From: Mobula hypostoma
Lineage: Eukaryota
Assembly: GCF_963921235.1 (NCBI RefSeq)
Contig: NC_086097.1
Span: 61,692,001 to 61,756,000 of the forward strand
DNA length: 64,000 nt
Direction: 5' to 3'
Shown here piece by piece: positions 1,140 through 49,800 of this stretch (position 1 is its first letter; every line of letters begins with the position of its first letter). The translations under genes and the position numbers were made by a program. The notes under the pieces are model-generated. The model did no database searches. It saw only the letters and a program-made list of their open reading frames with translations, and was not told the origin of the DNA.

Positions 1140-1295
1140 AAAAAATGTGCGAAGAGTATTGCATTTATGGAGAAGAATTAACAGTTATGAAGCTCAGCAC
1201 AAAGCACCAACTATTTAATCTGCTCTGCAGATACTGCTCCAGCATTTTGTAGCTGTTTCTCCTGATTTCCAGCATCTGCAGAATCCCTAGTGTCT
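1140..1295. repeat. Old Penelope terminal-repeat-derived short element (degenerate)
   Basis: Ends in ...ctccagcattttgt...gatttccagcatctgcagaatc, the same tail as the Penelope-derived repeats at 22367, 40660 and 44827. Heavily diverged. Confidence 0.5.
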
Positions 1296-7000: not shown

Positions 7001-8021
7001 TGAGCTGGTGGGGAGCGCTTTGGTCAAGGGTCACGGAGGCCAGGGTTGTGTCGCTGTCTTGGTCCAGCATGGTAGGGTGACCTGTGAGCACCCGTTGGTT
7101 GTAGGTGGTGGGAGGTGGCGCCGACCAAGATGGCCACCCCCATGTCTCGCACGTGGTGGCGGAGTGCAGGGAAGATGGCGGCAGACAAGATGGTGACCCC
7201 CATGTCTCGCACACGGCGCTGCTCGATCCCGCTCGCAGTTTGAACTTACAGACCTTGGCGACGTGGCCCTTCTTTCCGCAGCTAGAGCAGGTAGCTTGTC
7301 AGGCCGGGCAGCATTTCCGGGAGTGCTTCTCGACTCCACAGAAGTAGCACTTCACGGACTCGCAACTGGCAGCAGCCAAGCTCGATTCGCCGGCGGGTTG
7401 CGGGGACTCACAACTGGCAGCAGCCGTGGTCATTTCACCGGCGGGTTGCGGGGTCTGCGGCACCCACGAGGCCATCAGGGAATCACATGCCTGATGAGCC
7501 TCAGAGTTGTGCAGAGCGGCCTCCAGCATGTCCGCCAGCTCGATTGCAGAACTTAAGGTAAGATCAGCTTTTTCCAACAGCCGCTGGTGCACATACACTG
7601 ACCTGCTCCCCGTGACGAAGGTGTCTCTCACTAGGAGCTCTGCATGCTGTCCTGCCGTCAGTTCTTGGCAGCTGCAGGTCCGCACGAGTGTCTGTAGTGT
7701 CTGGACAAACTCAGCACTTGATTCCCCGGGCCTCCGGCGCCATGTTGCTAAACAATGGCACGTGTAGACGGTGTTTAGTAGCTGCAGGTATTGTCCTTTG
7801 TATGCGTTCATCACGCTGTCATAGCTCAGCTGGTCTCTGATCATCAAGTAGACCCGTTGCCTCACCCTGGAATGTAGAACTCTGTGCTTCGCTGTGGGGT
7901 CGGTCACTTCAATCGTCTCTAGGTATGATTCGAAGCAAGCCAGCCAGGGTTCAAAAGCGTTTCCAGCTTCAGGTGTTTGCGGGTCGAGATCTAACTTGTC
8001 GGGTCTCAGAGATCGTTCCAT
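4072..8021 (-). pseudogene. Single gag-pol ORF of Gypsy element 1 with 2 premature stops and 1 frameshift
   Basis: ORFs 7299..8021, 6903..7214 and 5109..6890 share a frame. Gag has two Zn knuckles (CYFCGVEKHSRKC, then CSSCGKKGHVAKVC after the TGA at 7299-7301). Protease CLFDTG; RT (VVDY, IDLKSAYHQ, YLDN); RNase H (SDAS, EKEA, LTD). Integrase (4072..5235) follows a frameshift near 5150, with VDFKG/HSDRG/GQVE. Confidence 0.93.
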
Positions 8022-8030
8022 GCTTTAAAA

Positions 8031-10098: not shown

Positions 10099-10705
10099 TG
10101 TATGGGGTCTTTCTTTTGTTACATTTAAAATGGCGACTTTGTTATGTTAATCTGGGGAATGCGGCTTTGTTGTGCTTTAACGCTGAAGAGAGTTTGCGCT
10201 AACAGTTGTTTTACTTTAAAATGAGATAACAGGGTTCTATTAGCCAATGGGTGGTTATATATCATTTTGTTTTCGGATATCATGCTGTATGATATGACTG
10301 TGGACTGAGTTTTGGCGGGGAGTCGGAGGAGAGATGAGGAAGACCGCGGACGTGTGGAGAGGCTCCGGTTGATCACTCAGGGTGGTCCCGAGCTGTGAGT
10401 CGACGGAATTCGGGTGGTCGTCTGAAGTCGAATTGAGCTCCAACGTAGCGCGCAAAGAACTTGGACTTTGATAAGTGTTGGCGCCTTTTTTTTTCATTAC
10501 TGTCCTCTCTGTATCAAATGTATATTAATGTCATAGAATTAGTAATATCTATAAAGTGTACTTGTTAAAATTTACTGGGTGTGCTGGCTGATGATTGATG
10601 TTTGTGATTGATTCAGGGGGCAAACAACCCTGTGGGGAGTGTTGAGGCGAGTGCTGGGCTGGATTTCCCCTAGACATACACGAGCCAATATAACTGAACG
10701 TTACA
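10099..10705 (+). repeat. 5' LTR of Gypsy element 2 (607 bp)
   Basis: Direct repeat of 16618-17225; TG...CA ends. Confidence 0.97.
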
Positions 10706-10707
10706 AG

Positions 10708-10730
10708 TGGGGGCTACCGTCCTGGATTTG
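10708..10730 (+). promoter_or_regulatory. tRNA-Pro-like primer-binding site
   Basis: TGGGGGCTACCGTCCTGGATTTG lies 2 nt after the LTR. The canonical tRNA-Pro PBS is TGGGGGCTCGTCCGGGATTTG (2-nt insertion and 1 mismatch here). Confidence 0.8.
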
Positions 10731-10777
10731 GACTTTTCGGGAAAGTTGTACTTGTCGTTGTGGTAAGTGGTGTGAAG

Positions 10778-12091
10778 ATGGATCGAGATAAGATTGTAAG
10801 TTGGTGTGAATTTGAGGTGGTACCGGTGAATCATGCATGTGTGGTAAGCGGGGCCGATTATCGCATTTCGGCAGAGGTACTGGTGCGAGGGTTGAGTTTG
10901 ATTAAAGGTATCGGGCAGGTAGAACTTATAGCTAGAAGGGGTGGGAAAGAACTGGAGTCCAGCTGGATGTTGGTGCGGACGAGTGCCGACGTCATGACTT
11001 TAGAACTACCAGCGACAGTCCACGTCCAGGGGGAGGCAGGGCTGTGGGGTCTCCACACCCTCCCGGAGGACGCAAGTGAGGAGGTGCCGGAGGAGGAGCT
11101 AGATGAGGCCCCAGGGGAGGTGCCGGTAGCCAGGGGTGGAGGTGTGGAGTGGGAAGGCTTGGCCAGGCCCCGTCCCTCAGTTAGGGCTGAGACCTCCGAG
11201 TTAGCGGCTGCCATTACCTCCCTGGCGAGAAGGGTTGAGGGGCCCCGTCCGAAGCTGAGAATTTTCTCGGGAGCCAGGCCCACCCCGGGAGGGGAGGATG
11301 AATATGAGACCTGGGTTGAGGATACATCCCAGTTGTTAGAGGTGTGGCCAGTTTCGGATGAGGAAAAGAGACAGCGATTGGTGGAAAGCTTAAGGGGCGG
11401 GGCAGCCCGTGTGGTCCGCGATTTGAGAGCGAAACGCCCTTCGGCTTCCCTGTCAGAGTGTTTGGACGCTTTGGAGGAAGTGTTTGGACTGTCAGGAGAT
11501 CCCTGGCGGCATTTAGCGGAGTTTCAACAAATGGGGCAGAGAAGAGGGGAAAAGCTCTCAGAATACGTTTTCCAGCTGGAAGGGAAGCTTACGGGGTTGC
11601 TGCGACGAGGGGTAGTGAGGGAGGACGAAGTGGCGGAGTTAAGGATGAGCCAGATATGTAGAGGTTCCCGGGAGGATGACAGGGTGGCTTGGAGTATCCG
11701 GCAGTCATTTAAGTGGAGCCCCCCTCCATCATTCGGACAGCTGATCCGAGAGGTACAGGCCGAGGAGAGTGCTTTGGGCCGACCAGGGGGCTCGGACCCT
11801 CAGGGACGGTCTTCAGCGGTTCAGGAGGTGGTAGCCGGGGTGAGATCAGAGAAATCCAAGAGGTCCCCGGGGGGCCGTATCGGGAGGAGAGAGGCGGTGG
11901 GTAGCGGGTGCTATAACTGTGTGAGAGAGGGGCATTTCCGCCGGGAATGTGAGTGGCCGGGGGTGTGTTACAGCTGTGGGGAAGCGGGTCACTTGCGGAG
12001 GGATTGTGAGAGACGAGATGCTCCGAGGGGGGAGGGCCCCCGGGCCACTAAGAAGGGAGAGGTGTCGGGAAACTTAGGAGAGGCTCAGTGA
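10778..12091 (+). CDS. Gag protein, PNMA/MOAP1-like capsid plus two CCHC zinc knuckles (437 aa, uninterrupted)
   Basis: KLRIFSGARPTPGGEDEYETWVE...VSDEEKRQRLVESLRGGA resembles the PNMA capsid signature. Knuckles CYNCVREGHFRREC and CYSCGEAGHLRRDC. First ATG at 10778. Confidence 0.9.
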   Translation: MDRDKIVSWCEFEVVPVNHACVVSGADYRISAEVLVRGLSLIKGIGQVELIARRGGKELESSWMLVRTSADVMTLELPATVHVQGEAGLWGLHTLPEDASEEVPEEELDEAPGEVPVARGGGVEWEGLARPRPSVRAETSELAAAITSLARRVEGPRPKLRIFSGARPTPGGEDEYETWVEDTSQLLEVWPVSDEEKRQRLVESLRGGAARVVRDLRAKRPSASLSECLDALEEVFGLSGDPWRHLAEFQQMGQRRGEKLSEYVFQLEGKLTGLLRRGVVREDEVAELRMSQICRGSREDDRVAWSIRQSFKWSPPPSFGQLIREVQAEESALGRPGGSDPQGRSSAVQEVVAGVRSEKSKRSPGGRIGRREAVGSGCYNCVREGHFRRECEWPGVCYSCGEAGHLRRDCERRDAPRGEGPRATKKGEVSGNLGEAQ

Positions 12092-12127
12092 GGGAACGGA
12101 CTGGAGTCTCGGGAGGAACACGTTCCC
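12067..12127 (+). promoter_or_regulatory. -1 programmed ribosomal frameshift signal (G GGA AAC plus H-type pseudoknot)
   Basis: Slippery heptamer 12067-12073 in the correct gag phase, 6-nt spacer, stem 1 12080-12089 with 12100-12110, stem 2 GGGAACG 12092-12098 with CGTTCCC 12121-12127. Pol is in the -1 frame. Confidence 0.85.
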
Positions 12128-15100
12128 AGAAACCCACTATGGAACCCCAGAAAGAACAAGCCCAAATTCCGGATGGACTGGTGGGACCCTGTTCCAGCGT
12201 GTCCCTACGGATACAGGGAATCTTTGCGAAAGCCTTCCTTGACACCGGGTTGCAGGTTACCTTACTGTACCGGTCGTTCTACAACAAATATCTGAAGCAT
12301 TTGGCAGTAACTCCGTTTAACGCATTGGAGATTTGGGGCATAAGTGATGGTGATTACCCGTACGATGGATACTTGTCAGTGAGATTGGAATTTTCGGAGG
12401 GAGATGTGGGAGTATCGGAAGCCTTTGAGACGCTGGTGTTGGTCTGTCCGGACCCGGTGGAAACCGTTGGTGCTGCCCTGCTAGTGGGGACTAACTCCCC
12501 TCTGGTGCGACGGCTCTTGGGAGCCTGTAAGAAGGCGGCGGGGGAGAACTTTCTGGAGACCCTCTCGGTACACCCCGTGTTCTGAGCGGTGTACGAAGGA
12601 GTGAGTGACCCCCCGGGGCTGGATCCTGAGTGCAAACGAGGGACGGTGTGGTGCACTCAGGCCAGGCCTAAGGTGATACGGCCAGGGGAGGCGGCATTAG
12701 TGATGGGGACCCCCAGATTCCCCGGATTACCGCCAGGCGAGGCCCTGCTAGTAGACGCCCCCGACGACCTGGAAAGGGAGTCCCGGTTCCCGGCTGGGGC
12801 GCTAGTGAGACCTGAATTGCAGAGGCCCTCAGCTGTACAGGCACGGCGGATGGGGGTGATGGTAAGGAACATAACGGAGAGGGAGATCACCTTTAAGCAC
12901 GGGATGCCCCTCGTGCACTTGTTCCCGGTGACGGTGATGTCCAGCACCCCCGTGAAGCCCACTGGAGGAAAACTATTGGAGAACGGGGGGCAGCTGACCA
13001 AGGAGGCCTTTAGTTTTGAAGACTCCTCTGTACCGCCGGAGTATAAGAGCAGGCTGGTGGAGAAGATGCTGAAGTTAGGGGGTGTCTTTTCTCAGGGCGA
13101 GTTTGATGTGGGATGTTCCAAGAGCACTCGGCACACTATCCAAGTGACAAATGACACCACGTTTAGAGAGAGGTCGCGGCGGTTGGCCCCAGCAGATCTG
13201 GAAGATGTGCGGCAGTTGAAAGACGCAGGGATTATTGTGGAGTCCCGAAGCCCCTATGCGTCCCCCATAGTGGTGGCAAGGAAGAAAAATGGGAAGGTAC
13301 GCATGTGCGTGGACTACAGGACCCTGAACCGGCGCACTGTTCCCGACCAATATACGGTCCCGAGGGTGGAAGATGCCTTGGCCTGTCTGAGTGGTGCACA
13401 GTGGTTCAGTGTATTGGATTTGCGGAGTGGGTATTACTAGATTCCGATGAGTGAGACCGGTAAAGAGAAGACGGCCTTTATCTGCCCCCTGGGTTTTTTC
13501 CAGTTCGAACGAATGCCCCAAGGCATCTCGGGGGCCCCAGCCACCTTCCAGCGGCTCATGGAGCGGACAGTGGGGGACATGAACCTGCTGGAGGTATTGG
13601 TGTACCTGGACGACATGATAGTGTTTGGATCTACGTTGGAGGAACATGAGGAGCGGCTGCTGAAGGTGTTGAGTTGGCTGAAGGAGGAAGGGTTAAAACT
13701 TTCCCTGGATAAATGTCAGTTCTGTAAGACGTCGGTCAGTTCTGTAAGACGTCGGTCAGTTATGTTGGGCACATAATCTTGCGAAATGGAGTGGCCACCG
13801 ATCCGGATAAGATAGCCACAGTCACCACCTGGCCGAGACCTCAGAAGGTGAGCGCCTTACGCTCGTTTTTGGGGTTTTGCGGATATTACCGGCGGTTCGT
13901 GAAAGGATATGCGAAAATGAGTCATCCATTGAACCAGCTGCTGTGTGGCTATCCACCTGTGGGGAGGAGGAGGAAGGGAGACCGAGGGTCGGAGGTAGGA
14001 GGATACCTGAACCCAGGGGAGCCTTTTGGATTGAGGTGGGATGCTCAATGTGAGGGGGCGTTCCAATCTCTGAAAAGGGCGCTGACGCAGGCCCCAGTGT
14101 TGGCATTTGCTGATCCCCGGAAGCCGTATGTTCTACACACTGATGCCAGTCACGAGGGTCTGGGGGCTGTCCTGTACCAGGAACAGGGCAACGGATTGAG
14201 GCTGGTGGCGTTTGTCAGTCGGAGTTTGTCGCCATCTGAGAGAAACTATCCCACTCACAAGCTGGAATTCTTGGCATTGAAATGGGTGGTAGTGGACAAG
14301 TTGAGTGACTACCTATATGGGGCCCAGTTTGAGGTGAGAACTGATAACAACCCCCTCACTTATATCCTGACCTCAGCTATGTTGGATGCTACTGGGCACC
14401 GGTGGTTAGCAGCCTTGTCTGCCTATGAGTTCAGCCTGAGGTACCGCCCGGGGAGTCAGAACAGATGCCCTGTCTTGTCGGGCGCACGACGAGTCGGGCA
14501 CGGCCGAGGAGTGGAAGAGTGTCCCTGCTCAGGGAGTAAAGGCCATGTGTCAAGTTGGGAGCGACGGGGAAGTAGGAGCACAGACGGGAACGGATCGGGC
14601 AGTAGATCAATTGGGGGCTGACGATGACGCGCTACCCACTGTTTACTGTAATGTGACTGCTCTGAGGAACAGGCAGCTGCCGGAGTTGAGCCCCCAGGAA
14701 GTGGGGGCGGCTCAGCGTGATGACCCGAGCATTGGCACTATCTGGTACGCTGTTAGCCAGGGTGATATGGGGCAGGTGGAGAAGGCGAAACACGCCTCCG
14801 TTCCCCTACGACTGAAGGAGTGGCCCTGGTTGAAGCTGAAGAACCACGTCCTGTACCGAGTCACGTCGCCTCCGGACCACCCCCGGCGCTGGCAGCTGGT
14901 CATGCCTGAGAAGTATCGGAAGACTGTGCTCCAGGCTCTACATGATGATTCCGGGCACTTTGGGGTAGAGAAGACCTATGGATTAGTCAAGGACCGGTTT
15001 TACTGGCCCCGGATGAGAGGGGAGGTGGAAGAATACTGTAAGACCTGTAGCCATTGTGTCAGGAGGAAGACCTTGTCTGCGTAGGCGGCCCCGTTATCCC

Positions 15101-16596
15101 ACTTGCAGAGTGCGGGACCCATGGACCTGGTGTGTATGGATTTCCTGTCTATTGAGCCAGACACCAGCAACACTGCGAATGTCTTGGTCCTCACGGATCA
15201 CTACACTAGATATGCGCAGGCTTTTCCTACTAAAGATCAGAAAGCAACTACAGTGGCGAAGGTGTTATGGGAGAAGTACTTTGTTCATTATGGCCTTCCC
15301 CGGCGGATCCATAGTGATCAGGGACGGGACTTCGAGAGCAGGCTTATACATGAATTGCTGGATATGCTTGGGGTTGAGAAATCCAGAACCACCCCCTATC
15401 ACCCGCAGGGTGATCCTCAGCCCGAGAGATTTAACCGGACCCTGCTGGACATGCTCGGCACCTTGGAGATTGGACAGAAGAGTAAGTGGAGTCGGCACAT
15501 CGCCCATTTGGTTCATTGTTACAATTGTACTCGCAATGATGCTACAGGGTACTCGCCCTACTATCGGATGTTCGGACGGGAAGCGAGGTTGCCCATTGAT
15601 CTGTGTTTTGGGACTGAAGCGGGGGAAATACCTTGGAAGCCATGTCTGAAGTACATGTCCGATATGAGGAGAGAGTTGAAAAGGGCGTACGAGTTGGCTG
15701 AGGCGGCAGCCACCAAGCAGAACCAGCGGAATAAAAGGAGGTATGATCAGAAGGTAAAGTTCGTCCAGCTATTGCCGGGAGACCGAGTCCTTATCCGGAA
15801 TTTAGGACTACCTGGTAAGCACAAGTTGGCGGACCGTTGGGCAGCCACCCCCTATGTGGTGGAGAGTCAGATGCCGAATCTCCCGGTTTACCGGGTGAGA
15901 CCCGAGGACAGGAAGGGGCCTGTCAAGGTACTCCATTAGAACCACCTGTTGCCTCTGGGTCGAGAGGTGAAGGTAGACCCAGAGCCCGAATGGGAGTTTA
16001 CGCCTAGTACGAGGACTCTGCGAGGGTGCGGGGCGAGGGAAGAGACCGCTGCAAAGAAGACGGGGCCGGTCCCCACCTGGAGAAGGGATACGTCATCGGA
16101 AGATGATGATTCAGACGTGTGGTACCTGTTTCCGTTCGCTGATTCCCCGGTGCCGGGAGAAGAGACTCTTGGCCCTTCCCTCACTGAGTCAGGGGAACCG
16201 AGGGAGGGTGTTGCAGAGCCGCCTGTATTACAGCTGGGATTGGGGGAGGGTGTTGCAGAGCCACCTGTATTACAGCCGGAATTGGGGGAGGAGAGGGTGG
16301 AGGCAGAACCTGAGCCGGAGGGCTCACAGGGGCAGAGGGAGCCCGGTGAAGGGGAAGGTCCGACAGATAGGCCCGAGGGGTCAGCTGGGGTGTCTGAACA
16401 GGGAGAGTCAGCAGAGGAAGTACAGAGGCCTCAGAGGAGTAGGCATCCCCCGGAAAGACTAACTTATACAGCGCCGGGAGAGCAGGGTGTGATCTCTACT
16501 GCCCTGCAAAGTTATGTCACTGCTTTATGCACCTGGGTTGGGTTTTGTGTTTTACAAGGAGCACTGGTGAACTCTGTTATCGTCATGAGGGCATGA
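12070..16596 (+). pseudogene. pol (PR-RT-RH-IN) of Gypsy element 2, with 4 stops and 2 frameshifts
   Basis: FLDTG protease; RT CVDYR/LDLRSGYY/YLDD; RNase H TDAS/KLEFLAL/TDNNPL; integrase HDDSGH..CSHC, CMDF, HSDQG, QPERFN. Stops at 12583, 13438, 15082 and 15937. Frameshifts from a 20-bp tandem duplication (13721-13760) and a deletion near 14462. Confidence 0.93.
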
Positions 16597-21970: not shown

Positions 21971-24900
21971 AAATGGTTGCAGGAGAGCTGTGATTGGCAA
22001 CTAAATGGTTGCAGGAGGGGTGTGATTGGCAACTAAATATTCCTGGATTTTGTTGCTTCAGATGTGATAGAATCAGAGGGGCAAGAGGGGGAGGTTTTGC
22101 ATTCTATGTCAGAGAAAATATAACCAGTGCTCTGGCAGGATAGATTAGTAGACTCGTCTAGGGAGGCTACTTGGGTGGAACTGAGGAATGGGAAAGGTGT
22201 AGTGATGCTTAGAGGGGTGTATTATAGACCACCTAATGGGGAGCAAGACTTGGAGGAGCAAATTTGTAAGGAGATAGCAGATATTTGCAGTAAGCACAAG
22301 GTTGTGATTGTGGCAGATTTTAATTTTCCACACATTGACTGGGAAGCCCATTCTGTAAAAGGGCTAACAACAGGAATTCTGCAGATGCTGGAAATTCAAG
22401 CAACATACATCAAAGTTGCTGGTGAACGCAGCAGGCCAAGCAGCATCTATAGGAAGAGGCGCAGTCGACGTTTCAGGCCGAGACCTTTCGTGGTCTCGGC
22501 CTGAAACGTCGACTGCGCCTCTTCCTATAGATGCTGCTTGGCCTGCTGCGTTCACCAGCAACTTTGATGTATGTTTCTGTAAAAGGGCTAGATGGTTTGG
22601 AGTTTGTAAAATGTGTGCAAAATAGTTTTTTGCAGCAATACATAGAAGTACCAACTAGAGAAGGAGCAGTGCTGGGTCTCCTGTTAGGGAATGAGATAGA
22701 GCAGGTGATGGAGGTATGTGTTGGGGACACTTTGGGTCCAGTGATCACAATACTATTAGTTTCAATATAGTTATGGAGAAGGATAGGACTGGACCCAGGG
22801 TTGAGATTTTTGATTAGAGATAGGATAACTTTGAGGAGATGCGAAAGGATTTAGAAGGAGTGGATTGAGACAATTTGTTTTATGGATAGGATGTAATAGA
22901 GAAATGGAGGTCATTTAAAGGTGAAATTTTGAGGGTACAGGATTTTTATGTTCCTGTTAGGTTGAAAGGAAAGGTTAAAAGTTTGAAAGAGCCATAGTTT
23001 TCAAGAGATATTGGAAACTTGGTTCAGAAAAAGAGAGGGATCTACAATAAATATAGGCAGCTTGGAGTAAATGAGGAGCTCGAGGAATATAAAGAATGTA
23101 AAAAGAATCCTAAGAAAGAAATTAGAAAAGCTAAAAGAAGATATGAGGCTGCTTTGGCAAGTAAGGTGAAAATAAATCCAAAGGGTTTTTACAGTTATAT
23201 TAATAGCAAAAGGATAGTGAGGGATAAAATTGGTCCCTTAGAGAATCAGAGTGGACGGCTATGTGCAGAGCCAAAAGAGATGGGGGAGATTTTGAACAAT
23301 TTCTTTTCTTCGGTATTCACTAAGGAGAAGGATATTGAATTGTGTAAGGTAAAGGAAACAAGAAAGGTAGTTATGGAAAGTATGATGATTAAAGAAGAGG
23401 AAGTACTTGCGCTTTTAAGGAATATAAAAGTGGATAAGTCTCCAGGTCCAGACAGGATATTCCCTTGGACCTTGAGGGAAGTGAGTGTGGAAATAGCAGG
23501 GGCTCTGACAGAAATATTTCAAATGTCATTAGAAACAGGGATGGTGCCGGAGGATTGGCGTATTGCTCATGTTTTTCCATTGTTTAAAAAGGGATCTAAG
23601 AGTAAACCTAGCAATTATTGGCCTGTGAGTTTGACGTCAGTGGTAGGTAAATTGATGGAAAGTATTCTTAGAGATGGTATATATAATTATCTGGATAGAC
23701 AGGGTCTGATTAGGAACAGTCAACACGGATTTGTGCCTGGAAGGTCATGTTTGATAAATCTTATTGAATTTTTTGTTGAGGTTACTAGGAGAGCTGATGA
23801 GCATAAAGCGGTGGATGTGGTCTATATGGACTTCAGTAATGCCTTTGACAAGGTTCCACACGGAAGGTTAGTTAGGAAGGTTCAATTGTTGGGTATTAAT
23901 ATTGCAGTAGTAAAATGGATTCAGCAGTGGCTGGATGGGAGACGCCAGAGAAAAGTGGTGGATAACTGTATGTCGGATTAGAAGGCGGTGTCTAGTGGTG
24001 TGCCTCAGGGATCTGTACTGGGTCCAATGTTGTTTGTCATATATATTAATAATCTGGATGATGGGGTTGTAAATTGGATGAGTAAGTATGCAGATGATAC
24101 TAAGACAGGTGGAGTTGTGGATTATGACGTAGGATTTCAAAGCTTGCAGAGAGATTTAGACCACTTAGAAGAGTGGGCTGAAAGATGGCAGATGGAGTTT
24201 AATGCTGATAAATGTGAGGTGCTACATTTTGGTAGGACTAATCAAAATAGGACATACATGGTAAACGGTAGGGCATTGAAGAATGCAGTAGAACAGAGGG
24301 ATCTAGGAATAATGATGCATAGTTCCCTGAAGGTGGAATCTGATGTGGATAGGGTGGTGAAGAAAGCTTTTAGTATGCTGGCCTTTATAAAGCAGAGCAT
24401 TAAGTATAGGAGTTGGAATGCAATGTTGAAATCGTATAAGGCATTGGTAAAGCCAAATTTGGAGTATTGTGTACAGTTCTGGTCACCAAATTATAGGAAA
24501 GATGTCAATAAAATTGAGAGAGTACAGAGGAGATATACTAAAATGTTGCCTGGATTTCATCTCCTAAGTTACAGAGAAAGGTTGAACAAGTTAGGTCTTT
24601 ATTCTTTGGAGTGTAGAAGGTTGAGATATTTAAAATTATGAGGGGGATAGATAGAGGTGACGAGGATAGGCTTTTTCCATTGAGAGTGGGGGAGATTCAA
24701 ACAAGAGGACATGAGTTGAGAGTTAAAGGGCAAAAGTTTGGGGGGAGCTTCATTACTCAGAGAGTGATAGCTGTGTGGAATGAGCTTCCAGCAGAAGTGG
24801 TTGAGGCAGGTTGGATGTTGTCATTTAAAGTTAAATTGGATAGATATAGGGACAGGAAAGGAATGGAGGATTATGGGCTGAGTGCAGGTCTGTGGGACTA

Positions 24901-24988: not shown

Positions 24989-26286
24989 ATCACCATATAC
25001 AACCCTGAGATTCATTTTCTTGCAGGATATTCAATAAATCCAATAGCCACAATGGAATCAATTAAAGAACGCATTATCAGGGCAAACATCCAGTGTGCAA
25101 AAGACAACAAACTGTGCACATACAAAAATAAATAATAATAATAATTAAGCAATAAATATCAAGAAGTTAAGATGAAGAGTCCTTGAAAGAGATTCCATTG
25201 GTTGTGGGAACAATTTCCATATCATTGATGGTGTAAGTGAAGTTGAGTGAAGTTATCCTGTCTGGTTCAGCAACCTGTTAGCTGAGGGGTAATAACTGTT
25301 CTTAAATCTGGCAGTATGGAACCTCTTGTACTTTCTTCCTGATGACAACAGTGAGAAGAAAGCATAACATGGGTAAAAGATGTTCTGCGACTATGGGTCT
25401 TGTTTTCTTGTGGCAATGCTCTGTGGTGGAGAGGGTTTTACCAATGGGCCAAATCCACTACATTTTGTAGGACCTTCTGTTCAAGGCATTGGTGTTTCCA
25501 TGCCAGGCCATGATGCAGCGAGTCAACATACTCTCCACTGCACATCTATAGACACTTGTTGAATTTATAGATGTCATGACGAATCTTCGCAAACTCCCAA
25601 GAAAGTAGAGGCACTGCTATGCTTCCATTGTACTTACACTTAGTGCTGAGCCCCGGACAGGTCCTCTGAAGTGATAACACCAGCAATTTAAAGATGCTGC
25701 CTTTTTCCACCTCTGTTCCTCTGATGTGGACAGGCTCATGCTCCTCTGGTTTCCTCTTCCTGATGTCAATCATCCGATCCTTGGTCTTGCTGACATTGAA
25801 TAAGAGGTTATTGTTGTGTCAGCATCAAACCTACAGACAACGGTGGTGCTGTTGCAGTCAGGTGGACTGACCTCTGCTTTGCTGAGGCCAGATGGCAGAA
25901 CTCAGACACCTCCATTTACCTACTATTGTAAAGGACCCGACTATAAAGCACCAGGCCTTTTGCTCCCATACTACCATTAACCTCATTAACTCTAGAAATC
26001 TCCCATCCACTGTCACCAGCCTCATAGTTCCCATACCCTGCATTGTGTGTTTCCACCTCTCACCCAAGATCCACAAACCCAACTACCCCAGTAGGCCCAT
26101 TGTTTCTGACTGCTCCTGCACCACTGAACTTATGTCTACATACCTCAAATCTATTTTGTCCTGCTTGGTTCAGTCACTTCTGACTTGAGACTACACATTC
26201 TCCGCATCACTTTAATCTTTTTCCGTTCCCTAACTCAGAATACTTCATTTTCCTATGGACATCCAGTTACTGTACACTTCCACCCC

Positions 26287-26380
26287 TGTCCTGCCGAAGG
26301 GTCTCAGCCCAAAACATCGACTATACTTTTTTCCATAGATGCTGCCTGGCCTGCTGAGTTCCTCCAGCATTCTGTGTGTC
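26287..26380 (+). repeat. Penelope terminal-repeat copy with degenerate minimal hammerhead ribozyme
   Basis: gtc-CTGCCGA-agggtctcagccc-AAAACATC-gac resembles the CTGANGA...GAAACGTC core with mutations, followed by the shared tail gatgctgcctggcctgctgagttcctccagca. Confidence 0.75.
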
Positions 26381-26535
26381 ACTACTGTCTTATTTCTATT
26401 TTTGCATTACATATTTTATTTAACCATTTAATACATATAAACTCACAATTTTTCTCTTACTATGTATTGCATTGTAGTGCTGCCACAAAGACGACTAATT
26501 TCACAACACATGCTAGTGATTATTATTCTAATTCT

Positions 26536-27935: not shown

Positions 27936-29929
27936 TATGTTTCTTACCTATCACCCAATGAGCCTCCATATCAAGCACATCGTTCTCTGTAACTCCCACC
28001 ATCTCCAACAGGATCCTACCACTAAGCACATCTTTCCCTGTACACCCCTCCTCCACTTCCCGTAGGGTTAGCTGTCTAAGTGACTGACTCGTCCACTCAT
28101 CCCTCCCATAGATTCCCCTCCTGGCAAAAGGGACAATTGGCATATATGCAACCCCTCTTCTTTACCACCATTCAAAGATCCAAATGGTCCTTCCAAGTGA
28201 GATGACGCTTCACATGCAAGTCTTTTGGGGTTATCTATTCTATCCAGTGCTCCCGATGCAGCCTCCTCTACATCAGTGAGATCTGATGCAGACTGGAGGA
28301 ACATAGAATAGTACAGCACATTACAAGCCCTTCAGCTTTGAGGAAACTGCTTTGTTGAGCACCTTCACTCTGTCCGCTGCCAAAGGCAAGATCTACAGGT
28401 GGCTACCCATTTCAATTTGACTTCCTATACCCACTCTGATATGACTGTCTATGACCTCCTCTACTGCCATGATGAGGCCAGTCTCAAGTTAGAGGAGCAA
28501 CTCCTGATATTTCATTTGCATAGCTTCCAACCTTATGGCATAAACATTGATTTCTCTAACTTCTGCCAATTTTTCCCCTTATCTCTTTTTCCCCTTCTCT
28601 CTTTTTCCCTTCCTCATTCTAGTCACCTTCTCACACTGTCCTCTCCTGTTGAATACCTTTTCCTTTAGCCCCTTACCTCTTCCACCTGTCCCCTCCCAGT
28701 TTCTTACTTCATTGCCCACACCCCATTCACCCCCCCCACTTTCCCCTCACCTGGTTTCACCTATCAAATGCCAGCTTGTACTCCTTCCCCATTGCACCTA
28801 ATTATTCTTGCTTCCCTTCCTTTCCAGTCCTGACAAAGGGCGTTGGTCGGAAATGTCAACTGTTTATTCCCCCACCATAGATGCTGTTGGACTTACTGAG
28901 TTCCCCAGCACCTTTTTTGTGCTGCTTTGCCCATTAATTGATCTCTGTCTCTAATCTTTGCTTCCATCCTTTTTAGCCAACCTACATTAACTCAGCACTT
29001 AAATAAGATGATAAAAAAGTTCACATTTTCTTTATCAGTTTTGCTGGTAAAATTATATCTATATATATGCCAACTTATCTCTACATTTAGTAATTTATTT
29101 TAGCCCTTTTGTGGTAGGGTTCCCTTCTCATTACTTCCTAATTCTTCTGATCTTGATCTCCATCAGAACTTTACAAGACTGACACCTTAGTACTTTTCTA
29201 ACCATCTACTGGTACAGACAGACTACAGTCTATCCCAACGTAAATCGAAATAACACGGAAAAAATACCAGATTGCCTATATTGTCTGTTCTTCTGATCAT
29301 TAGGAATACTTGTAGATCTGTGCTTAATTATTTGATGCTCGAACATTAAAACATAGCAATTGATAAAAAGTGATAAGGTATTCTGATAGTTACTAAAAAG
29401 TTGTCAATTGTTTTGCAATGTTCTCCCTTTCTAAAAAAAATACACACATGAATATTATATGCACATAGAGGCAACATCATTTTTTTATTTCTTGCTTTTA
29501 AATACTCCAAGAGATCACTAAATTATAACATCTAAAATGGTCACTTACGGGTCACTTATAAATTTGTCAGTTTGCTTTAGCACAAAGCCAGTTGGGAATG
29601 TTCCCTGTGGCTTGAGTAGAATTTATGTTTTCTAAACTTGTATTTCTTTAAACAAGATGCAACCATCACGTATTATTTATACTTGATTTAAGAAAGCATT
29701 ATGATTCCCTTGTTCCTGTTTGTTGTCAACATAATTTCCTGCTATTTTAGGAGACTGTATTAGACCATTAGATTACAATGACACTGCATGACATGAAGCT
29801 GCATTTGAATGTATTATTCATCTCCTGTGCATTTTACAAACTTTTCTTTGAATTTTCTTTGAATTTGTTTAAGCAGAAACAGTATCCTATTAAGAAAATA
29901 AAATGTATCATAACACATGTATGACGTAT

Positions 29930-31175: not shown

Positions 31176-34100
31176 TATAAGACCATAAGATATAGGAGCA
31201 GAAGTAGGCCATTCAGCCCATTGAGTCAGCTCTGCCATTCAATCATGGGCTGATCCAATTCTTCCAGTCATCCCCACTCCCCTACCGTCTTTCTCCCCAT
31301 ACACTTTGATGCCCTGGCTAATCAAGAACGTATCTATCTCTGCCTTAAATGCACCCAATGACTTGGCCTTCACAGCCGCTCGTGGCAACAAATTCTACAG
31401 ATTTACCACCCTCTGACTAAAGAAATTTCTCTGCATCTCTGTTCTAAATCCTGAAGTCGTACCCTCTTGTCCTAAACTCCCCTACCATGGGAAATAACTT
31501 TGCCATATCTAATCTGCTCAGACCTTCTAACATTTGGAATGTTTCTGTGAGATCCCCCCTCATTCTCCTGAACTCCAGGGAATACAGCCCAAGAGCTGCC
31601 AGACATTCCTCATATCATAATCCTTTCATTCCTGGAATCATTTTCTTGAATCTTCTCTGAACCCTCTTCAATGTTAGTATATCCTTTCTAAAATAAGGAG
31701 CCCAGAACTGCACACAATACTCCAAGTGTGGTCTCACGAGTGCCTTATAGAGCCTCAACATCATATCCCTGCTCTTATATTCCATACCTCCAGAAATGAA
31801 TGCCAACATTGCATTCGCCTTCTTCACCACCGACTCAACCTGGAGGTTAACCTTTAGAGTATCCTGCACAGGACTCCCAAGTCTCTTTGCATTTCTGCAT
31901 TTTGAATTCTCTCACCATCTGAATAATAGTCTTCCTGTTTATTTCTTCCACCAAAGTGTATGACCATACACTTTCCAACATTGTATTTAATTTTCTACCT
32001 CTTTGCCCATTCCCTGAAACAATCTAAGTCTCTCTGCAGGCTTTCTGTTTCCTCAACATGACCTGCTCCTCCACCTATCTTTGTATCATCGGCAAATTTA
32101 GCCTCAAATCTATTAATCCCATAGTCCAAATGATATACATTGTAAAAAGCAGTGGTCCCAACACTGACCCCTGTAGAACTCCAGTAGTAACCGACAGCCA
32201 GCCAGAATAGGATCCCTTTATTCCCACTCTCTGTTTTCTGCCGATCAGCCACTGCTCCACCCCTGCTAGTAACTCCCCTGTAATCCCATGGGCTCTTAGC
32301 CTGCTAAGCAGTCTCATGTGCAGCACCTTGTCAAAGGCCTTCTGAAAATCCAAGTATACCATATCTACTGCATCTCCTTTGTCTATCCTGCATGTAATTC
32401 CCTCAAAAAATTGCAGTAGCTTAGTCAGGCAGGATTTTCCTTATAGGAAACCATGCTGGCTTTGGCCTATCTTGTCATGTGCCTCCAGGTATTCCGTAAT
32501 CTCATCCCTAACAACCGATGCCAACAACTTCCCATCCATCAATGTCAGGTTAACAGGTCTATAGTTTCCTTTCTTCTGCCTTCCACCATTCTTAAATAGA
32601 GGAATAACGTTTGCAATTTTCCAGTCATCTGGTACAATGCCAGAATCTGTCAATTCTTGAAAGATCAATTTTAATGCCTCTGCAATCTTTCCAGCTACTT
32701 CCTTCAGGACTCGAGGGTGCATTCCATCAGGTCCAGGAGAGTTATCCACCGTCAGAACATTAAGCTTCCTGAGCACATTCTCAGACGTAATTTTCACTGC
32801 ACATACTTCATTTCCCTGATGCTCGTGAATGGTACTGCAGATGTCTTCCACTGTCACGACTGATGCAAAATACGTATTCAGTTCCTCTGCCGTCTCTGCA
32901 TCGCTCATTACAATATCTCCAGCATCATTTTCTATTGCTCCTATATCTACCCTCAACTCTCTTTACCCTTTATATACTTTAAAAAGCTTTTAGTACCTTC
33001 TTTGATATTAGTCACTAGTTTCCTTTCATAATTCATCTATTCCTTCCTAATGACCTTCTTAGTTTCCTTCTGCAAGTTTTTAAAAGCTTCCCAATCCTCT
33101 ATCTTCCCACTAGCTTTGGCTTCCTTGTATGCCCTCTTTTTTTGCTTTTGACTTCACTTGTCAACGACGGTAGTGTCCTTCTTCCATTTGAAAATTTGGA
33201 ATATGTCTGTCTTGCACTTCCTTCATTTTTTACAGTAACTCCAGCCATTGCTGCTCTGCTGTCCTTCCTGCTAGTGTCCCTTTCCAATCAACCTTGGCCA
33301 GTTCACCTCTCATGCCATTGTAATTTCCTTTATTCCACTGAAATACCGACACATTGGAATTTAGTTTCTCCTTCTCAAATTTCAAAGTGAACTCGATCAT
33401 TTTGTGATCACTGTTCCCTAAGGGTTGCTTAACCTTAAGCTCTCTTATCACCTCCGGATCATTGCAGAACACCTAAAAAGCCATCCCTTAGACATTCTAC
33501 AAATTCTCTCTCTTGAAGTCCAATACTGACCTGGTTTTCCCAATCCACTTTTGTGTTAAAATCCCCAAGGATTACCATGACATTGCCCTTCTGACACACC
33601 TTTTCTATTTCCTGCTGTAATTTGTAATCCACATCCTGGCTGCTGTTTGGGGGCCTGTATACAACTGTCATTAGGGTCCTTTTACCCTTGCCATTTCTTA
33701 ACTCAACCCATAGAGACCCTACACCTTTTGATCCTATGTCATTCCTTTCTTGTGATTTAATATTATTTCTTAAACACGGAGTCACACCACCCCCTCTGCC
33801 TACTAATCTATCTTTCCAATACACCATATATCCGTGGACTTTCAACTCCCAATGGCAGCCATCCTTTAGCCAAGTTTCAGAGATGGCCACAATGTTATAC
33901 TTGCCAATCTGTAGCTGAATTTCAAGATCATCCATTTTATTTCTTCTGCAGCGTGCATTCAAATACAACACTTTCAGTCCAGTATTTGTTGCTTTCTGTT
34001 TTAACTGCACCACACCTCTACTGCCCTTAACTCATCCCACTGGCTAAGCATCCTCTCCTGCCTGTACTTTCTATCATCTCCGTCACACGCCATCTTGGAT

Positions 34101-36648: not shown

Positions 36649-38096
36649 TATGATATTGAGAACATCTAATCATTTTGCCTCTCCTTGTTCTTCCTTGCAA
36701 AATTTAATTGTGCATTTATCTGCATACCAGTGGTCTTTTGTCTGCCCATTCCACCAAACTATTTATTGCTTCTCCTGAGCTCCATTATCATTTTCCTGAC
36801 AGGTTGCTGTGCTTCCAAATTTCTCCATAGTACTATCAATTATTGCCTATCCCGTTACTTCCTGAAGCCATAGTGAATGTTAGACCATAGCTGCTCTCTG
36901 TGAATAAGAATGGTTTGCCAACTGTTTATAATCAGAACCCCGTCCGACTCATCACCCCCTTTGCGCTTGATCCTTGATAGGGACAGCTTCCTTAGTCTAC
37001 CCTCTGTAAACCAATCATTATTTTGTAGTTCATTCAGAATCAAAAGCTAACATTACTGAAGCGTTACTTTAGACATGGAAATATATATATTTTTTGATAG
37101 ATGTTTGATATAACCTTCATCTCACTAGCATTTTAAACATACTCCAAAAGTCAGAATTTGCTATTTCATTACTGTAAAATTCACTTTTGGTTTTGAACTC
37201 ACACTTTGACCCACTCGTTATTTTTACTCAGAAATGTAATTCTCTTCTCCAAGGACAAATCTGTAAAAAAGAATACAAAGGAAACAGAAGGCAATTGGCT
37301 TTTGTTAAAAAAGGAGACTTGGGTAACGTCACTTACCTTCAAGGACAGATGAAAAAGATTTCTTTGAACCATCATATAGGCTCTAATTCCAATACAATCA
37401 AAAGCCATTTGAAGAGAATGGCTTTAGATTTCATTGCTGAAATCACGCAGACCATCAGAATTCTTAACAATCAAGTTTCTTTCTTTGTTGTGGTTGTCTA
37501 TTTCATTTTAATTTTTCTTCAGCTGAAAACATCTAACCTCCACTCTGAGTGTTCATTCATATTACAGTTAATTGCTCTCACCATTTCATGTCTCCGTTAT
37601 TCTTCACTGAAGAATACATTTTGTATGCAGAACATAACAATATAGGAGTTACTATGATAACTACGTACTATCTCTTTTCAAGAAAGTCATTCCATCTATC
37701 AAACTCATTTTGCACTTTCTAAAAAGGCCTCAGATTACACGTAAATGCCAAAAAATGTAAGATGTTATTTAATTACAGGTAGCCAGTGCTCAGAGAATGT
37801 TGGTTTTTATTTTCTTTTTCTTAAATTACAGCATTGCAAAGCTGAGGATGAACAGAAAATTCAAAAAGCTTTAATTCAGAATAATATCCAAAAGTGTGTG
37901 CAGATCTAGAAAAAAAGGCAAATTATAATTTCACATAAAATTATTACAACAATAATGTTGGCAAAAGCACATATTTCTAAATAGCTATTCATTACTAAAG
38001 ATTATATAGGGATATTAGCCAAGGATAATGAGAGAACCTCTTCTTCATTCACTAAAGGTTGTGCATAATTAGATAGGTTTAAATTATTCATTGCCT

Positions 38097-38196
38097 CCAG
38101 TCTTGATGCAGGATTTCATCTGGAAATATTGATAATTCGTTTCATCCTGTAGATATGTTCAACCTGTTGAGTTCTTCCAGCAGATTGTTTGTTGCT
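38097..38196 (+). repeat. Old Penelope terminal-repeat copy
   Basis: ccagtc-ttgatgc...gaaat...agat...cctgttgagttcttccagcag, similar to 26287 and 28826. Confidence 0.6.
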
Positions 38197-44284: not shown

Positions 44285-45290
44285 TTCAAGTGCAAGTTCA
44301 AGTTCACGTTTAATGAGTATTCAACTGTACATGAATGTACCATTCACTGTTCCTCCAGGGCCAAGGTGCAAAACACATTAACAGCAGCACACTACACATA
44401 GCACATAGCACAAACAGCACAAATGGCATGTATGGTTATGATTTCAGAAAAACATAGTCATGAAGGAAAAAAAATAATTTTGCCCGAGTCCCTGAATGGG
44501 ATGACTTTAGAAATGATGGTAAGTTGCTTGATTTTCCACTGAGCAAACACTGGAGAGCAGCACTGATGGAAGATGCCAGCCCCCAACACAAATATGTATT
44601 CCAACCTGCCCCACAAAGGCACTCACGCACTGCCTCGGCATTTCCTCTCTTGGTCAGCAGCCACAGGCAAGGCGGCGGCTAGGGCTTAGCCCTTGCCACA
44701 ACTGAGGCAACGCAACTCCCTTGCTGTCAGTCTCACAGATGAACCAGTGAACTGGACTTGCAGAATTCTATGTTACTGATGTCCTACAGGATCTTGGGAT
44801 CACAAAAACAATCCCTCAGGCCTTTTAAAAATGCAAACAACAGGAATACTGCAGATGCCGGAAATTCAAGCAACACACATCAAAGTTGCTGGTGAACACA
44901 GCAGGCCAGGCAGCATCTCCTAGAGATACTGCCTGGGACTGTACCTCTTCCTAGAGATGCTGCCTGGGACTGTACCTCTTCCTAGAGATGCTGCCTGGCC
45001 TGCTGCATTCACCAGCAACTTTGATGTGTGTTGCCTCAGGCCTTTTTCCTGGACCGGTCACCAGCTTGGCACAACAGTACATGGCAAATCCAGGTGACAA
45101 CACAACAATGGTACATAATAAGTCCAGCTCTATCACTTTCAAGCAACTCGCTGATGGGATAACCCTGCAGAGCTTGATGTTCTTAGTTTACAGCTGTGAC
45201 TTGTGATCATAAAAAAGACATACAAGACAAACAGATACACCTCTGATTAGACCCAGAATTGCCTCTGCGTCTGAGTGTGCTGCCATCTTA
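44285..45290 (-). mobile_element. About 0.8-kb non-autonomous SINE/LINE-like element, interrupted by the 44827 insertion
   Basis: (CTTGAA)n-like tail at 44285-44305, 5' end aagatggcagcacac, homology to 36380-36648. Confidence 0.6.
44827..45033. mobile_element. Fold-back Penelope terminal-repeat insertion with internal 31-bp tandem
   Basis: 13-bp TSD cctcaggcctttt (44814-44826 and 45034-45046), 49-bp inverted arms 44871-44919 and 44985-45033 (2 mismatches), central 31-bp units. Confidence 0.92.
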
Positions 45291-46854: not shown

Positions 46855-49800
46855 TTGGAGAGGAGGGGATTTCAATCTGGTCCACTGCCCAAGGATAAAA
46901 GGCAGCAGCATAACAGAGCTTTGACCGGCAACCAGTTGGTGTCTAGAATTGATTGGTAAGAGCAAATTAAAGGAAGGCAGGGACAAGCACAGCAGCCATC
47001 GTCTCAGTGGACATAGTCAGAGTGGTGATCTTACGGCGTTAGTTTTTCAAGGCTTCATCAAAGAGAGGTTTCAGTCAGAGAAAACAAGAGAAAAGAAAAG
47101 CTCTTTTTTTTTCCATCTCTTCTTTATATCTGCTCAGCTAGGGCAGTAGAAATGCCAGGCAGAATAGTGAAATGCTCCTCTTGCAGAATGTGGGATGGCA
47201 GGAAGACCCCCAGTGTCCCTGATAACTACAACTGCAAGTGCATCCAGCTGCAGCTTGTAACAAACCACATTAGGGAGTTGGATCTGGAACTGGATGAACT
47301 CTGGATCATTCGGGAGGATGAAGGGTAGATAGGTAGGACATGTAGAGAGGTATTTGCACTCAAGGTGAAGGACACAGGAAACTGAGCAATGGTCAGGGAG
47401 GGGAAAGGAGTTAAGTAGTCAATGCAGAGTACACCTGTTGCCATCCCCCTCAACAACAGGTATATCACATTGAATACTACCAGGGGTGTTGACCTAAAAG
47501 AGGAGAGTCACAGTGGTTGAGTTTCTGGCACTAAGTCTGCCTCTGTGATTCAGAAGAAAAGGGGTGGGGGGAGAAGAGGCGAGCTGTGGTGATAGGGGAT
47601 TTGATAGTTAGGGGAATGGACAGAGTTCTGTGGATGAGAACGAGATTCCTAGATGGTACGTTTCTCCTGGGTGTCTGGTTTCAGGATATCTCAGAACAAG
47701 TCCTCAGCATTCTTAATGGGGAGGGTGAACAGCCAGAAGTCACAGTCCATGTAGGTAGTAAAGGCATGAGAGGACAAGTGATGAGTTTTTGCATAGGGAG
47801 TGCTGGGAGTTAGTTGCTAAGCTAAAGGGCAGGACCTCCAGGATTGTGATCTCAGGATTGCGACCCATGCCGTGTGCTATGTGGCTAAATAGTTTGTGTA
47901 AGAGGGAGGACATAGGATTTTTAGTTCATTAGACCTCTTCCAGTGAATGTTGGACCTGTACAGAAGGGATTTGCACCTGAACTGAAGGGGGACTATGTCC
48001 TAACAGGAAAGTTTGCTAATACTGCATGGTAGGGTTTAAACTAGAGCTGAGGGGATGGGAACCAGAGTGCCAGAATAGTTAGTGGAGAGATTGTGGCGGC
48101 AGATGTTGGTAAGTCATCAAACAAAGTTAGGAATCAAAAGGTTGAGCATGGTGCCACGAATGTCCTGAGCTGCCCATATTTTAATGCAAGAAGTATCACA
48201 GGAAAGGCGGATAATAGTGCTGAAGATAAGGTAGCTGGTTTACAAATAGAGACAATGTGTAGTGAGGAGAGGCTGTTGATAGGGCAAAACTGCAGTCAAC
48301 AGGATGAGTTGCAACATAAAAAAGCAGACAAAATCGAAAAGGGTGAATACAGGACTGAAGGTGTTAAATATGAATGCTCGCAGCATACAGAATAATGTTG
48401 GAGAACTTGCAGCACAGTTGCAGATTGGCAGGTATGATGTTGTAAGCATCACTGAATCAAGACAGAAAGATTATAGCTGGGTGCTCAATGTTCAAGGATA
48501 TACATTATATCAAAAGGATAGGTAGGAAGGCTGAGGGGGCCTCTTTAGAAAGAGGAGACATAGTGTTGGAAGGTGTTCAATCATTGTGGATAGAGCTAAG
48601 GATCTACAAGTGTAGAAAGTATTTGATGGGAGTTGTATAGAGACCCCCAAACAATAGTAAGGATGTGGCCTCCAAATTACAATGGGAGATGGAGTGTGCA
48701 TGCCAAAAGGTTTATGTTACAGTCGTCACGAGGGACTTCAACAGGAAGTTAGATTGGAACAATCAGGTTGGTGCTGGATTACGGGAGAGGGAGCTTGTAA
48801 AATACTTATGAGACAGCTTTTTAGAGCAGCTCGTGGTTAAGACCAGCTAGACGATCAGCTATTCTAGATTGGGTGTTGTGCAATGAAACAGAATTGATTA
48901 AAGAGCTTACCGTAAAAGAACTTGTAGGGGCAAGGGATCATAATATGATTAAAATTTGAGGAGAAGCTAAATTCAGATGTATCAGTATTACAGTGGAGTA
49001 AAGGGAAATACAGAGGCGTGAGAGACGAGTAGGCCATAATTCATTGGAAAAAAAACATTGGCAGGGATGACAACAGAGATGGCTGGAATATATGGAAGCA
49101 ATTCAGAAGGCACAGGATATATACATCCCAAAGAGGAAGAAGTGTTCTAAAGGAAAGATGACACAACTTTGGCAAACAAGCAACGTCAAAGCTAACATAC
49201 AAGCCAAAGAGAAGGCATAAAATAATGCAAAAATCATTAGGAATATAGAGGATTGGGAAGCTTTCAAATACCAACAGAAAGCAACTAGAAGAGTCATTAT
49301 GAAAGGAAAAGATGGAATACAAAAGTAAGCAAGCCAATATTATTAAAGAGAACACCAGAAGTTTCTTCAGAAATGTAAAGTGTAAAAGGGAGATGAGAGT
49401 GGATATCAGACTACTGGAAAACAATGCTGGAGAGGTAGAAATGGGAGATAATGAAATGGCTGATTTATTAAATATGTGTTTTGCAACAGTCTTCACCGTG
49501 GAAAACACTAGCAATATGGTGGAAGTTTCAGGTTTCAGGGTGCATGAACTGTGTGAAGTGGCCACAATTAGAGAGAAGGTTCCTGGGAAACTAAAAGGTC
49601 TGAAGGTAGATAAGTCACCTGGACCAGATGGTGTACACCCTGGAGTTCTGAAAGAGGTGGCTGAAGAGATCTTGGAGGCATTAGTAAGTAATGATCTTTC
49701 AAGAATCACTAGATTCTGGAATGGTTCAGGAAGACTTGAAAATTGCAAATGCCACTCCACACTTCAAGAAGGGAGAGAGGCAGTGGAAAGGAAGCTATTA

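Follow-up and report, generated by a model that had tools for sequence, protein, structure and literature searches.

Anatomy of the insertion

The window, by which we mean the whole 64,000-nucleotide stretch of Mobula hypostoma DNA analyzed here, contains a two-armed Penelope-like insertion of 207 bp at 44827-45033 that is bounded by a 13-bp target-site duplication (TSD), as the first-pass annotation had stated. Element positions are numbered from the G of GACTG, the first base 3' of the predicted hammerhead cut, which is designated +1 (Table 1). The insertion is ORF-free. Its inverted arms match over 50 nt with 96% identity, and a tail of ~43 nt is present on one arm only. With the sister arm and the common contig letters as reference, five private changes were counted in the 207 bp. 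The segment 44827-44835 was assigned to the element because contig letters past the tail read alike. Only the 3' strand of helix I is retained from the ribozyme, with no hammerhead core, confirming that the upstream ribozyme sequence is absent at both junctions of the central repeat.

Table 1. Features of the insertion, its relatives and other short duplications in the window
Feature	Position	Strand	Basis or remark
Left TSD, 13 bp	44814-44826		longest stretch common to both flanks
Long (tailed) arm, about +110 to +18	44827-44919	-	sequence reading and inverted-arm comparison
Inversion junction at the CTAG palindrome native to the element (+15 to +18), overlap of 2 nt (TC)	44918-44923		
Partial unit, +13 to +31	44918-44936	+	single private substitution, G to A
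Full 31-bp unit, +1 to +31, beginning at the predicted cut site	44937-44967	+	Tandem Repeats Finder, sequence reading
Short (tail-less) arm, +1 to +66	44968-45033	+	sequence reading
Right TSD, 13 bp	45034-45046		longest stretch common to both flanks
Sister two-armed insertion, 16-bp TSD; arms stop at -25 and -19, no CUGA	22367-22574		within LINE endonuclease region
Older family copy, whole but mutated minimal hammerhead	26284-26383	+	
Older Penelope-like 3' terminus with a broken GIY-YIG-like coding relic, a pyrimidine-rich repeat and, at about 28824-28860, what is left of a hammerhead	28206-28927	+	
Other tandem duplications, period 20-48 bp	1788-1884, 7356-7453, 11457-11498, 13715-13765, 16202-16291, 21971-22038, 47950-47989		

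According to the available text of two earlier studies, endonuclease-bearing Penelope-like elements (EN+ PLEs) leave inverted arms in one TSD, with only one of the arms tailed and a palindrome where the orientation switches (PMC3846280, PMC8557442). The portion of Frangieh et al. available to us attributes the tail to two RT start sites and describes both target strands as cut and extended (PMC11167929). Both young insertions in the window have inverted, 5'-truncated arms within one TSD (13 and 16 bp), together with a tail of the kind (30-40 nt, not always present) that arises from the use of two fixed RT start sites; the arms end at +66 and +110 in the insertion at 44827-45033 and at about +65 and +101 in its sister. 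The inverted arms, unequal 3' ends and TSD reproduce the published PLE pattern, and the Penelope origin proposed in the first-pass annotation fits. The long arm is likely a cDNA that began at the top-strand nick; for the short arm, priming by the bottom-strand nick, with synthesis beginning at the inner RT start site, is likely. It is more likely that these two cDNAs were joined at CTAG than that the inverted arm was formed afterwards, which is the order that had been proposed. The inner start site, at about +66, coincides with a weakly predicted stem-loop in the 3' part of the element (z about -1), in the arms at 44827-44919 (-) and 22367-22491 (-).

Related copies and the predicted cut site

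The 16-bp TSD copies of the sister insertion start at 22351 and 22575, and its inverted arms extend over 87 nt with 99% identity and a 6-nt spacer. If transcribed, the near-perfect palindrome at 22399-22578 would form a long RNA hairpin. The repeat in the sister had been reported at 22503-22515, and we read the same there: GAAACGTC starts at 22503 and is followed by GACTG up to 22515. The CUGA half of the hammerhead core is absent from both sister arms, and the sister alone therefore cannot define the ribozyme. In contigs extending beyond the sister arm the next letters are CAGGACT, or AGTCCTG when read in reverse, from which a helix I of AGUC/GACU is predicted for the young family. The whole hammerhead motif can be read in the older copies at 26284 and 28822, each of which has core mutations. 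The minimum-energy fold of the copy at 26284 contains helix I and helix II with an open core and is no more stable than shuffled sequences (z -0.17). While no single copy in the window is an intact hammerhead, the family terminus, as a composite of natural copies and contigs, has the CUGANGA and GAAA core, helix I, helix II and NUH triplet of a minimal type-I hammerhead. An Rfam search of the window returned no matches at the gathering score and no hammerhead match; for the sister palindrome it returned only sub-threshold hairpin (miRNA) matches, which reflect the hairpin alone. Much older relics of the family end are found at 38096-38191 (+), 40788-40714 (-) and 1232-1292 (+), and a decayed hammerhead layout is still visible in the first two.

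Hammerheads cut after an NUH triplet. Judged from this motif, the predicted cut position at GTC/GACTG is correct. In helix I, +1 is the base at the inner edge, and it also lies at the center of a GTCGAC palindrome. Ends left by trimming or by a structure-driven stop would thus fall on +1 even if no catalysis took place.

The 31-bp repeat and its join

Tandem Repeats Finder reports a period of 31 at 44918-44998 (2.6 copies, 98% match), in agreement with the 31-bp units first described, and GACTG starts at 44937 and 44968, each directly 3' of CTGCCTGG. The 13-base join CTGCCTGG/GACTG occurs twice in the 64-kb window, both times in this insertion, where 0.09 occurrences are expected by chance. 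Both junctions are letter-identical, with the donor at +31 and the acceptor at +1. The claim that the internal junctions fall exactly at the predicted cut is thus right as to position; however, two junctions that share donor and acceptor count as one coincidence, and we rejected the idea of two independent matches at the cut site.

Units 1 and 2 have the same sequence and no private change in common, which gives no clue to their age. The first +31-to-+1 join yields 19-bp direct repeats spaced 31 bp apart, from which the second unit could follow by slippage; the alternative is that the same slip occurred twice. Downstream, no sequence resembles GACTG more closely than GCCTG at +31 (4/5, tied with +26; 5/6 in the sister variant), so that a nascent end at +1 has a place at which to re-prime. 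The resemblance is a weak predictor because self-matches of 5/6 occur at many positions along the element. Re-priming at GCCTG predicts a period of 30 and two G residues, whereas a period of 31 and three G residues are observed; the third G would be supplied by run-off base addition or by a slip within the G run.

The +31/+1 join is base-exact, and its lack of overlap favors run-off or end joining. The window contains seven further local tandem duplications, with periods of 20-48 bp. Unlike the +31/+1 join, four of these seven, all two-copy arrays, have an end overlap of 2-6 nt. Across the two young insertions the distinct arm ends (n=5) are -25, -19, +18, +13 to +15, and +1, placing one of the five at the cut site. 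Two further origins of the repeat were rejected: later duplication of the short arm, as it now stands, as the sole cause, given that the leftmost unit is cut at +13 and calls for a deletion or for one or more non-native joins, and a 31-nt RNA circle, given that the first pass continues from +66 without a join.

Junctions in sequencing contigs

Contigs from four sequencing runs were aligned to the sister arm (22366-22491) at 85% likeness. The DNA run X1 gave 45,296 aligned contigs and X5 gave 24,515. The contigs of two runs, guessed to be RNA, also carry the element; neither expression nor RNA ends can be read from contigs. Loose ends, whose flanks are diverse, accumulate at +68/+69, with 121+104 = 225 contigs in X1 and 121+123 = 244 in X5, and near the outer end of the element, with 298 contigs in X1 and 281 in X5. 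These two piles are the published two-start "tail" signature. No loose-end pile is seen at the cut site among the six listed per run, the smallest of which contain 35 (X1) and 42 (X5) contigs and set no strict bound.

Among the 12 of 20 joins listed, the 5' extents are +68, +41, +32, +25, +1 and seven at -19 to -32, the last counted with between-letters that continue the element. These seven, two of which are probably variants of one junction, end in the upstream half of the hammerhead (window-equivalent 22485-22498), as do both sister arms (-25 and -19). Four of the 12 stop at -28 to -32, on or beside the upstream strand of helix I. There are two further strand-switch joins at +33 and +10, and seven "skip" rows were omitted from the junction count because a diverged subfamily accounts for them and the letters they skip are not known. 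One of the 14 listed junctions is therefore exactly at +1, for which the chance probability is about 0.14 over 95 positions. This junction, found in X1, connects the tail end (about +105), head-to-tail and in direct orientation, with precisely the predicted cut base (22466 to 22366). Its depth of 65.2 is the second highest of the 12 listed and several-fold above most of them, and it may represent several copies. It is independent of the join at 44937/44968.

The first-pass annotation had named a spike of junction positions at GTC/GACTG as support for its model. The junctions listed show no such spike and include one independent exact join. The sample is small, ranked by support and drawn from contigs, from which rare joins drop out, and alignment ends can be displaced where subfamilies differ near +6/+7. 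A modest excess at +1 could thus escape notice. Junctions at the cut site are unlikely to form a dominant 5' class, but may form a minor one. Pattern scans for family copies gave 96 stretches in metagenome contigs and, in viral contigs, 0 in one scan and 1 in another; all 97 loci were rejected as chance matches, as none aligned over more than 35 bases.

Origin of the +31/+1 join

We estimate about an even chance that the short arm stopped at +1 and restarted 31 bases back through a polymerase slip during integration, a route for which ribozyme cleavage is not needed. Reverse transcription would be primed by both target nicks, beginning at +110 (outer site) from one and at +66 (inner site) from the other. 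The cDNA begun at the inner site would stop at +1, by chance or since +1 is the edge of helix I, and the stopped end would re-prime at the look-alike GCCTG at +31. The second unit would arise from a repeat of the slip or from later slippage between the 19-bp direct repeats, and the two cDNAs would then be joined at the CTAG palindrome. Consistent with this sequence of events, the arm ends lie close to the contig piles at +68/+69 and near the outer end, the two joins do not differ by a letter, the best downstream match for re-priming (tied) lies at +31, and the inversion falls on CTAG. Seven of the 12 listed contig joins lie at -19 to -32 and only one at +1; the seven other duplications of period 20-48 indicate that such events are common in the window; and, in the text available, PAc inserts in vitro without ribozyme cleavage (PMC11167929). 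A slip leaves some features less well explained. The join is base-exact without overlap and its period requires one G beyond the predicted 30, four of the seven other duplications have end overlaps that this join does not, and the +31 look-alike is weak when 5/6 self-matches are found at many positions. There is also a second, independent direct join at exactly +1 in the contigs.

A second explanation follows the model of the first-pass annotation: the template would be the 3' product of hammerhead self-cleavage, with the RT running off at +1, likely adding a non-templated base and re-engaging this RNA or a different one at +31, in one or two rounds. We hold this explanation only tentatively and consider it less probable than a slip. 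A base-exact join with no overlap and one surplus G fits run-off addition, and the second exact +1 join, from tail end to cut site, also speaks for it. Run-off additions are known for R2, for which the available text also describes a ribozyme cut recorded in 5' junctions and tandem duplications (PMC3774820), and the PAc hammerhead is described as cleaving with its protein present (PMC11167929). Against this, the insertion at 44827-45033 represents one independent event, the one-in-14 contig count at +1 has a chance probability of about 0.14, and no pile of loose ends at the cut site is found among those listed. Minimal PLE hammerheads are reported, in the part of the work available, to be poor cleavers in vitro (PMC4209133). 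The dominant substrate of PAc is described as uncleaved RNA, and the accessible text reports no RNA-seq reads starting or ending at the site (PMC11167929). Furthermore, 275 windows of the genome were scanned, and some exact matches are expected by selection. The proposal in the first-pass annotation that the RT stopped at an RNA end and re-engaged 31 nt further in is thus retained in its stop-and-re-prime geometry, while a self-cleaved RNA end is at most a candidate cause in view of the single join, the helix I edge, the lack of a spike among the listed junctions and the PAc data.

Palindrome centers are unstable. On this basis a longer perfect palindrome, resembling that of the sister, could have broken at its center after insertion and been repaired with patches, likely templated, that left the tandem units and the +1 end with no RNA end involved. 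The array does adjoin the inversion point, the insertion has aged (five private changes in 207 bp), and short duplications are frequent in the window. We nevertheless regard repair as unlikely. Several steps would be required, the clean fold-back junction at CTAG resembles a primary join, and the sister palindrome has been preserved, with 87-nt arms at 99% and a 6-nt spacer. The least probable of the explanations is telomerase-like repeat addition in vivo by the Penelope RT, in which hammerhead cleavage would bound the template at its 5' side, GCCUG at +31 would realign and the 31-nt stretch would be copied three times running. Telomerase realigns on its template between repeats, and on such a reading the same run-off would also have yielded the +1-to-tail join in the contigs. 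According to the text available, PLE RTs form the sister group of telomerase (PMC8557442).

The observation is real, and the feature is for the most part an ordinary PLE insertion; a single locus proves nothing about cleavage in cells. The locus bears on the question of cleavage by PLE hammerheads in cells and of whether RNA cleaved in this way is ever copied. The family is very abundant (45,296 contigs from one DNA run), and a census of its junctions is feasible. Direct-orientation joins are the cleanest class to count, since fold-back of helix I does not explain them directly.

Comparison with known systems

Head-to-head arms within one TSD are common to the insertion and, as described in the available parts of the literature, to Pen2a_Av of Adineta vaga (PMC3846280), PLEs (PMC8557442) and PAc/Poseidon of Anolis (PMC11167929). 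The 30-40 nt tail on one arm, the palindrome or microhomology at the inversion and the two fixed RT starts are likewise shared with published EN+ PLE insertions. The present insertion differs in being very short (207 bp), in having no ORF and in its tail of about 43 nt, and its central 31-bp repeat is not described for EN+ PLE insertions in the accessible text of these three papers (PMC3846280, PMC8557442, PMC11167929). For PAc, the same source states that the hammerhead cleaves only with the protein and that cleavage is unnecessary for insertion (PMC11167929).

The minimal type-I hammerheads of PLE pseudo-LTRs, as presented in the available text of Cervera and De la Pena (2014, PMC4209133), have the same CUGANGA core, extra base before helix II and short helix I as the family studied here, as well as the same palindromic ACGU replacing helix III and the same GUC cut triplet. 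That text maps no genomic junctions to the cut site; the insertion at 44827-45033 carries the 3' strand of helix I and no ribozyme. We found no paper mapping PLE genomic junctions to the hammerhead cut in a literature search that was mostly at title level and covered few subscription journals.

The closest parallel in idea is R2 with its HDV-like ribozyme, where the cut is recorded in 5' junctions accompanied by non-templated bases, microhomology priming and tandem duplications of a length that fits the cut (Eickbush et al. 2013, PMC3774820, in the sections available). In R2 the cut sets most full-length junctions, whereas at most a small minority lie at the cut in the Penelope-like family, and the duplicated DNA is target sequence in R2 and element sequence in the insertion (PMC3774820). 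Animal non-LTR retrozymes also consist of tandem units derived from PLE pseudo-LTRs; however, the accessible text describes units of 51-972 bp that each contain a whole hammerhead, while the 31-bp unit contains none (bioRxiv 10.64898/2026.07.22.740005). Retrozymes are defined by at least two consecutive units, each with a complete hammerhead, and a retrozyme identity was rejected for the 31-bp unit, which lacks the core.

Parent element and neighboring elements

The older 3' end at 28206-28927 suggests a link between the family and a parent ORF of the EN+ PLE kind, in which a PLE-type RT is followed by a C-terminal GIY-YIG endonuclease with a CCHH motif. Upstream, the frame of this relic is broken; it reads VIY..I.C..C..LYI and H...H, with two cysteines between the motifs, and is interrupted near 28300-28337 by a short unrelated insert. 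Atlas look-alikes of the coding relic at 0.91 include GIY-YIG clusters, and searches of the endonuclease relic against Pfam and NCBIfam and for homologues gave no match. No PLE RT was detected in the window among the 33 of 48 ORFs scanned.

The window also contains LINE remnants with endonuclease and RT domains at 22124-24641 (+) and 32075-34031 (-), which are probably CR1. Two decayed LTR retrotransposons, at 4072-8024 (-) and 10694-16596 (+), encode RT, RNase H and integrase, and a PNMA-type gag is present in the latter.
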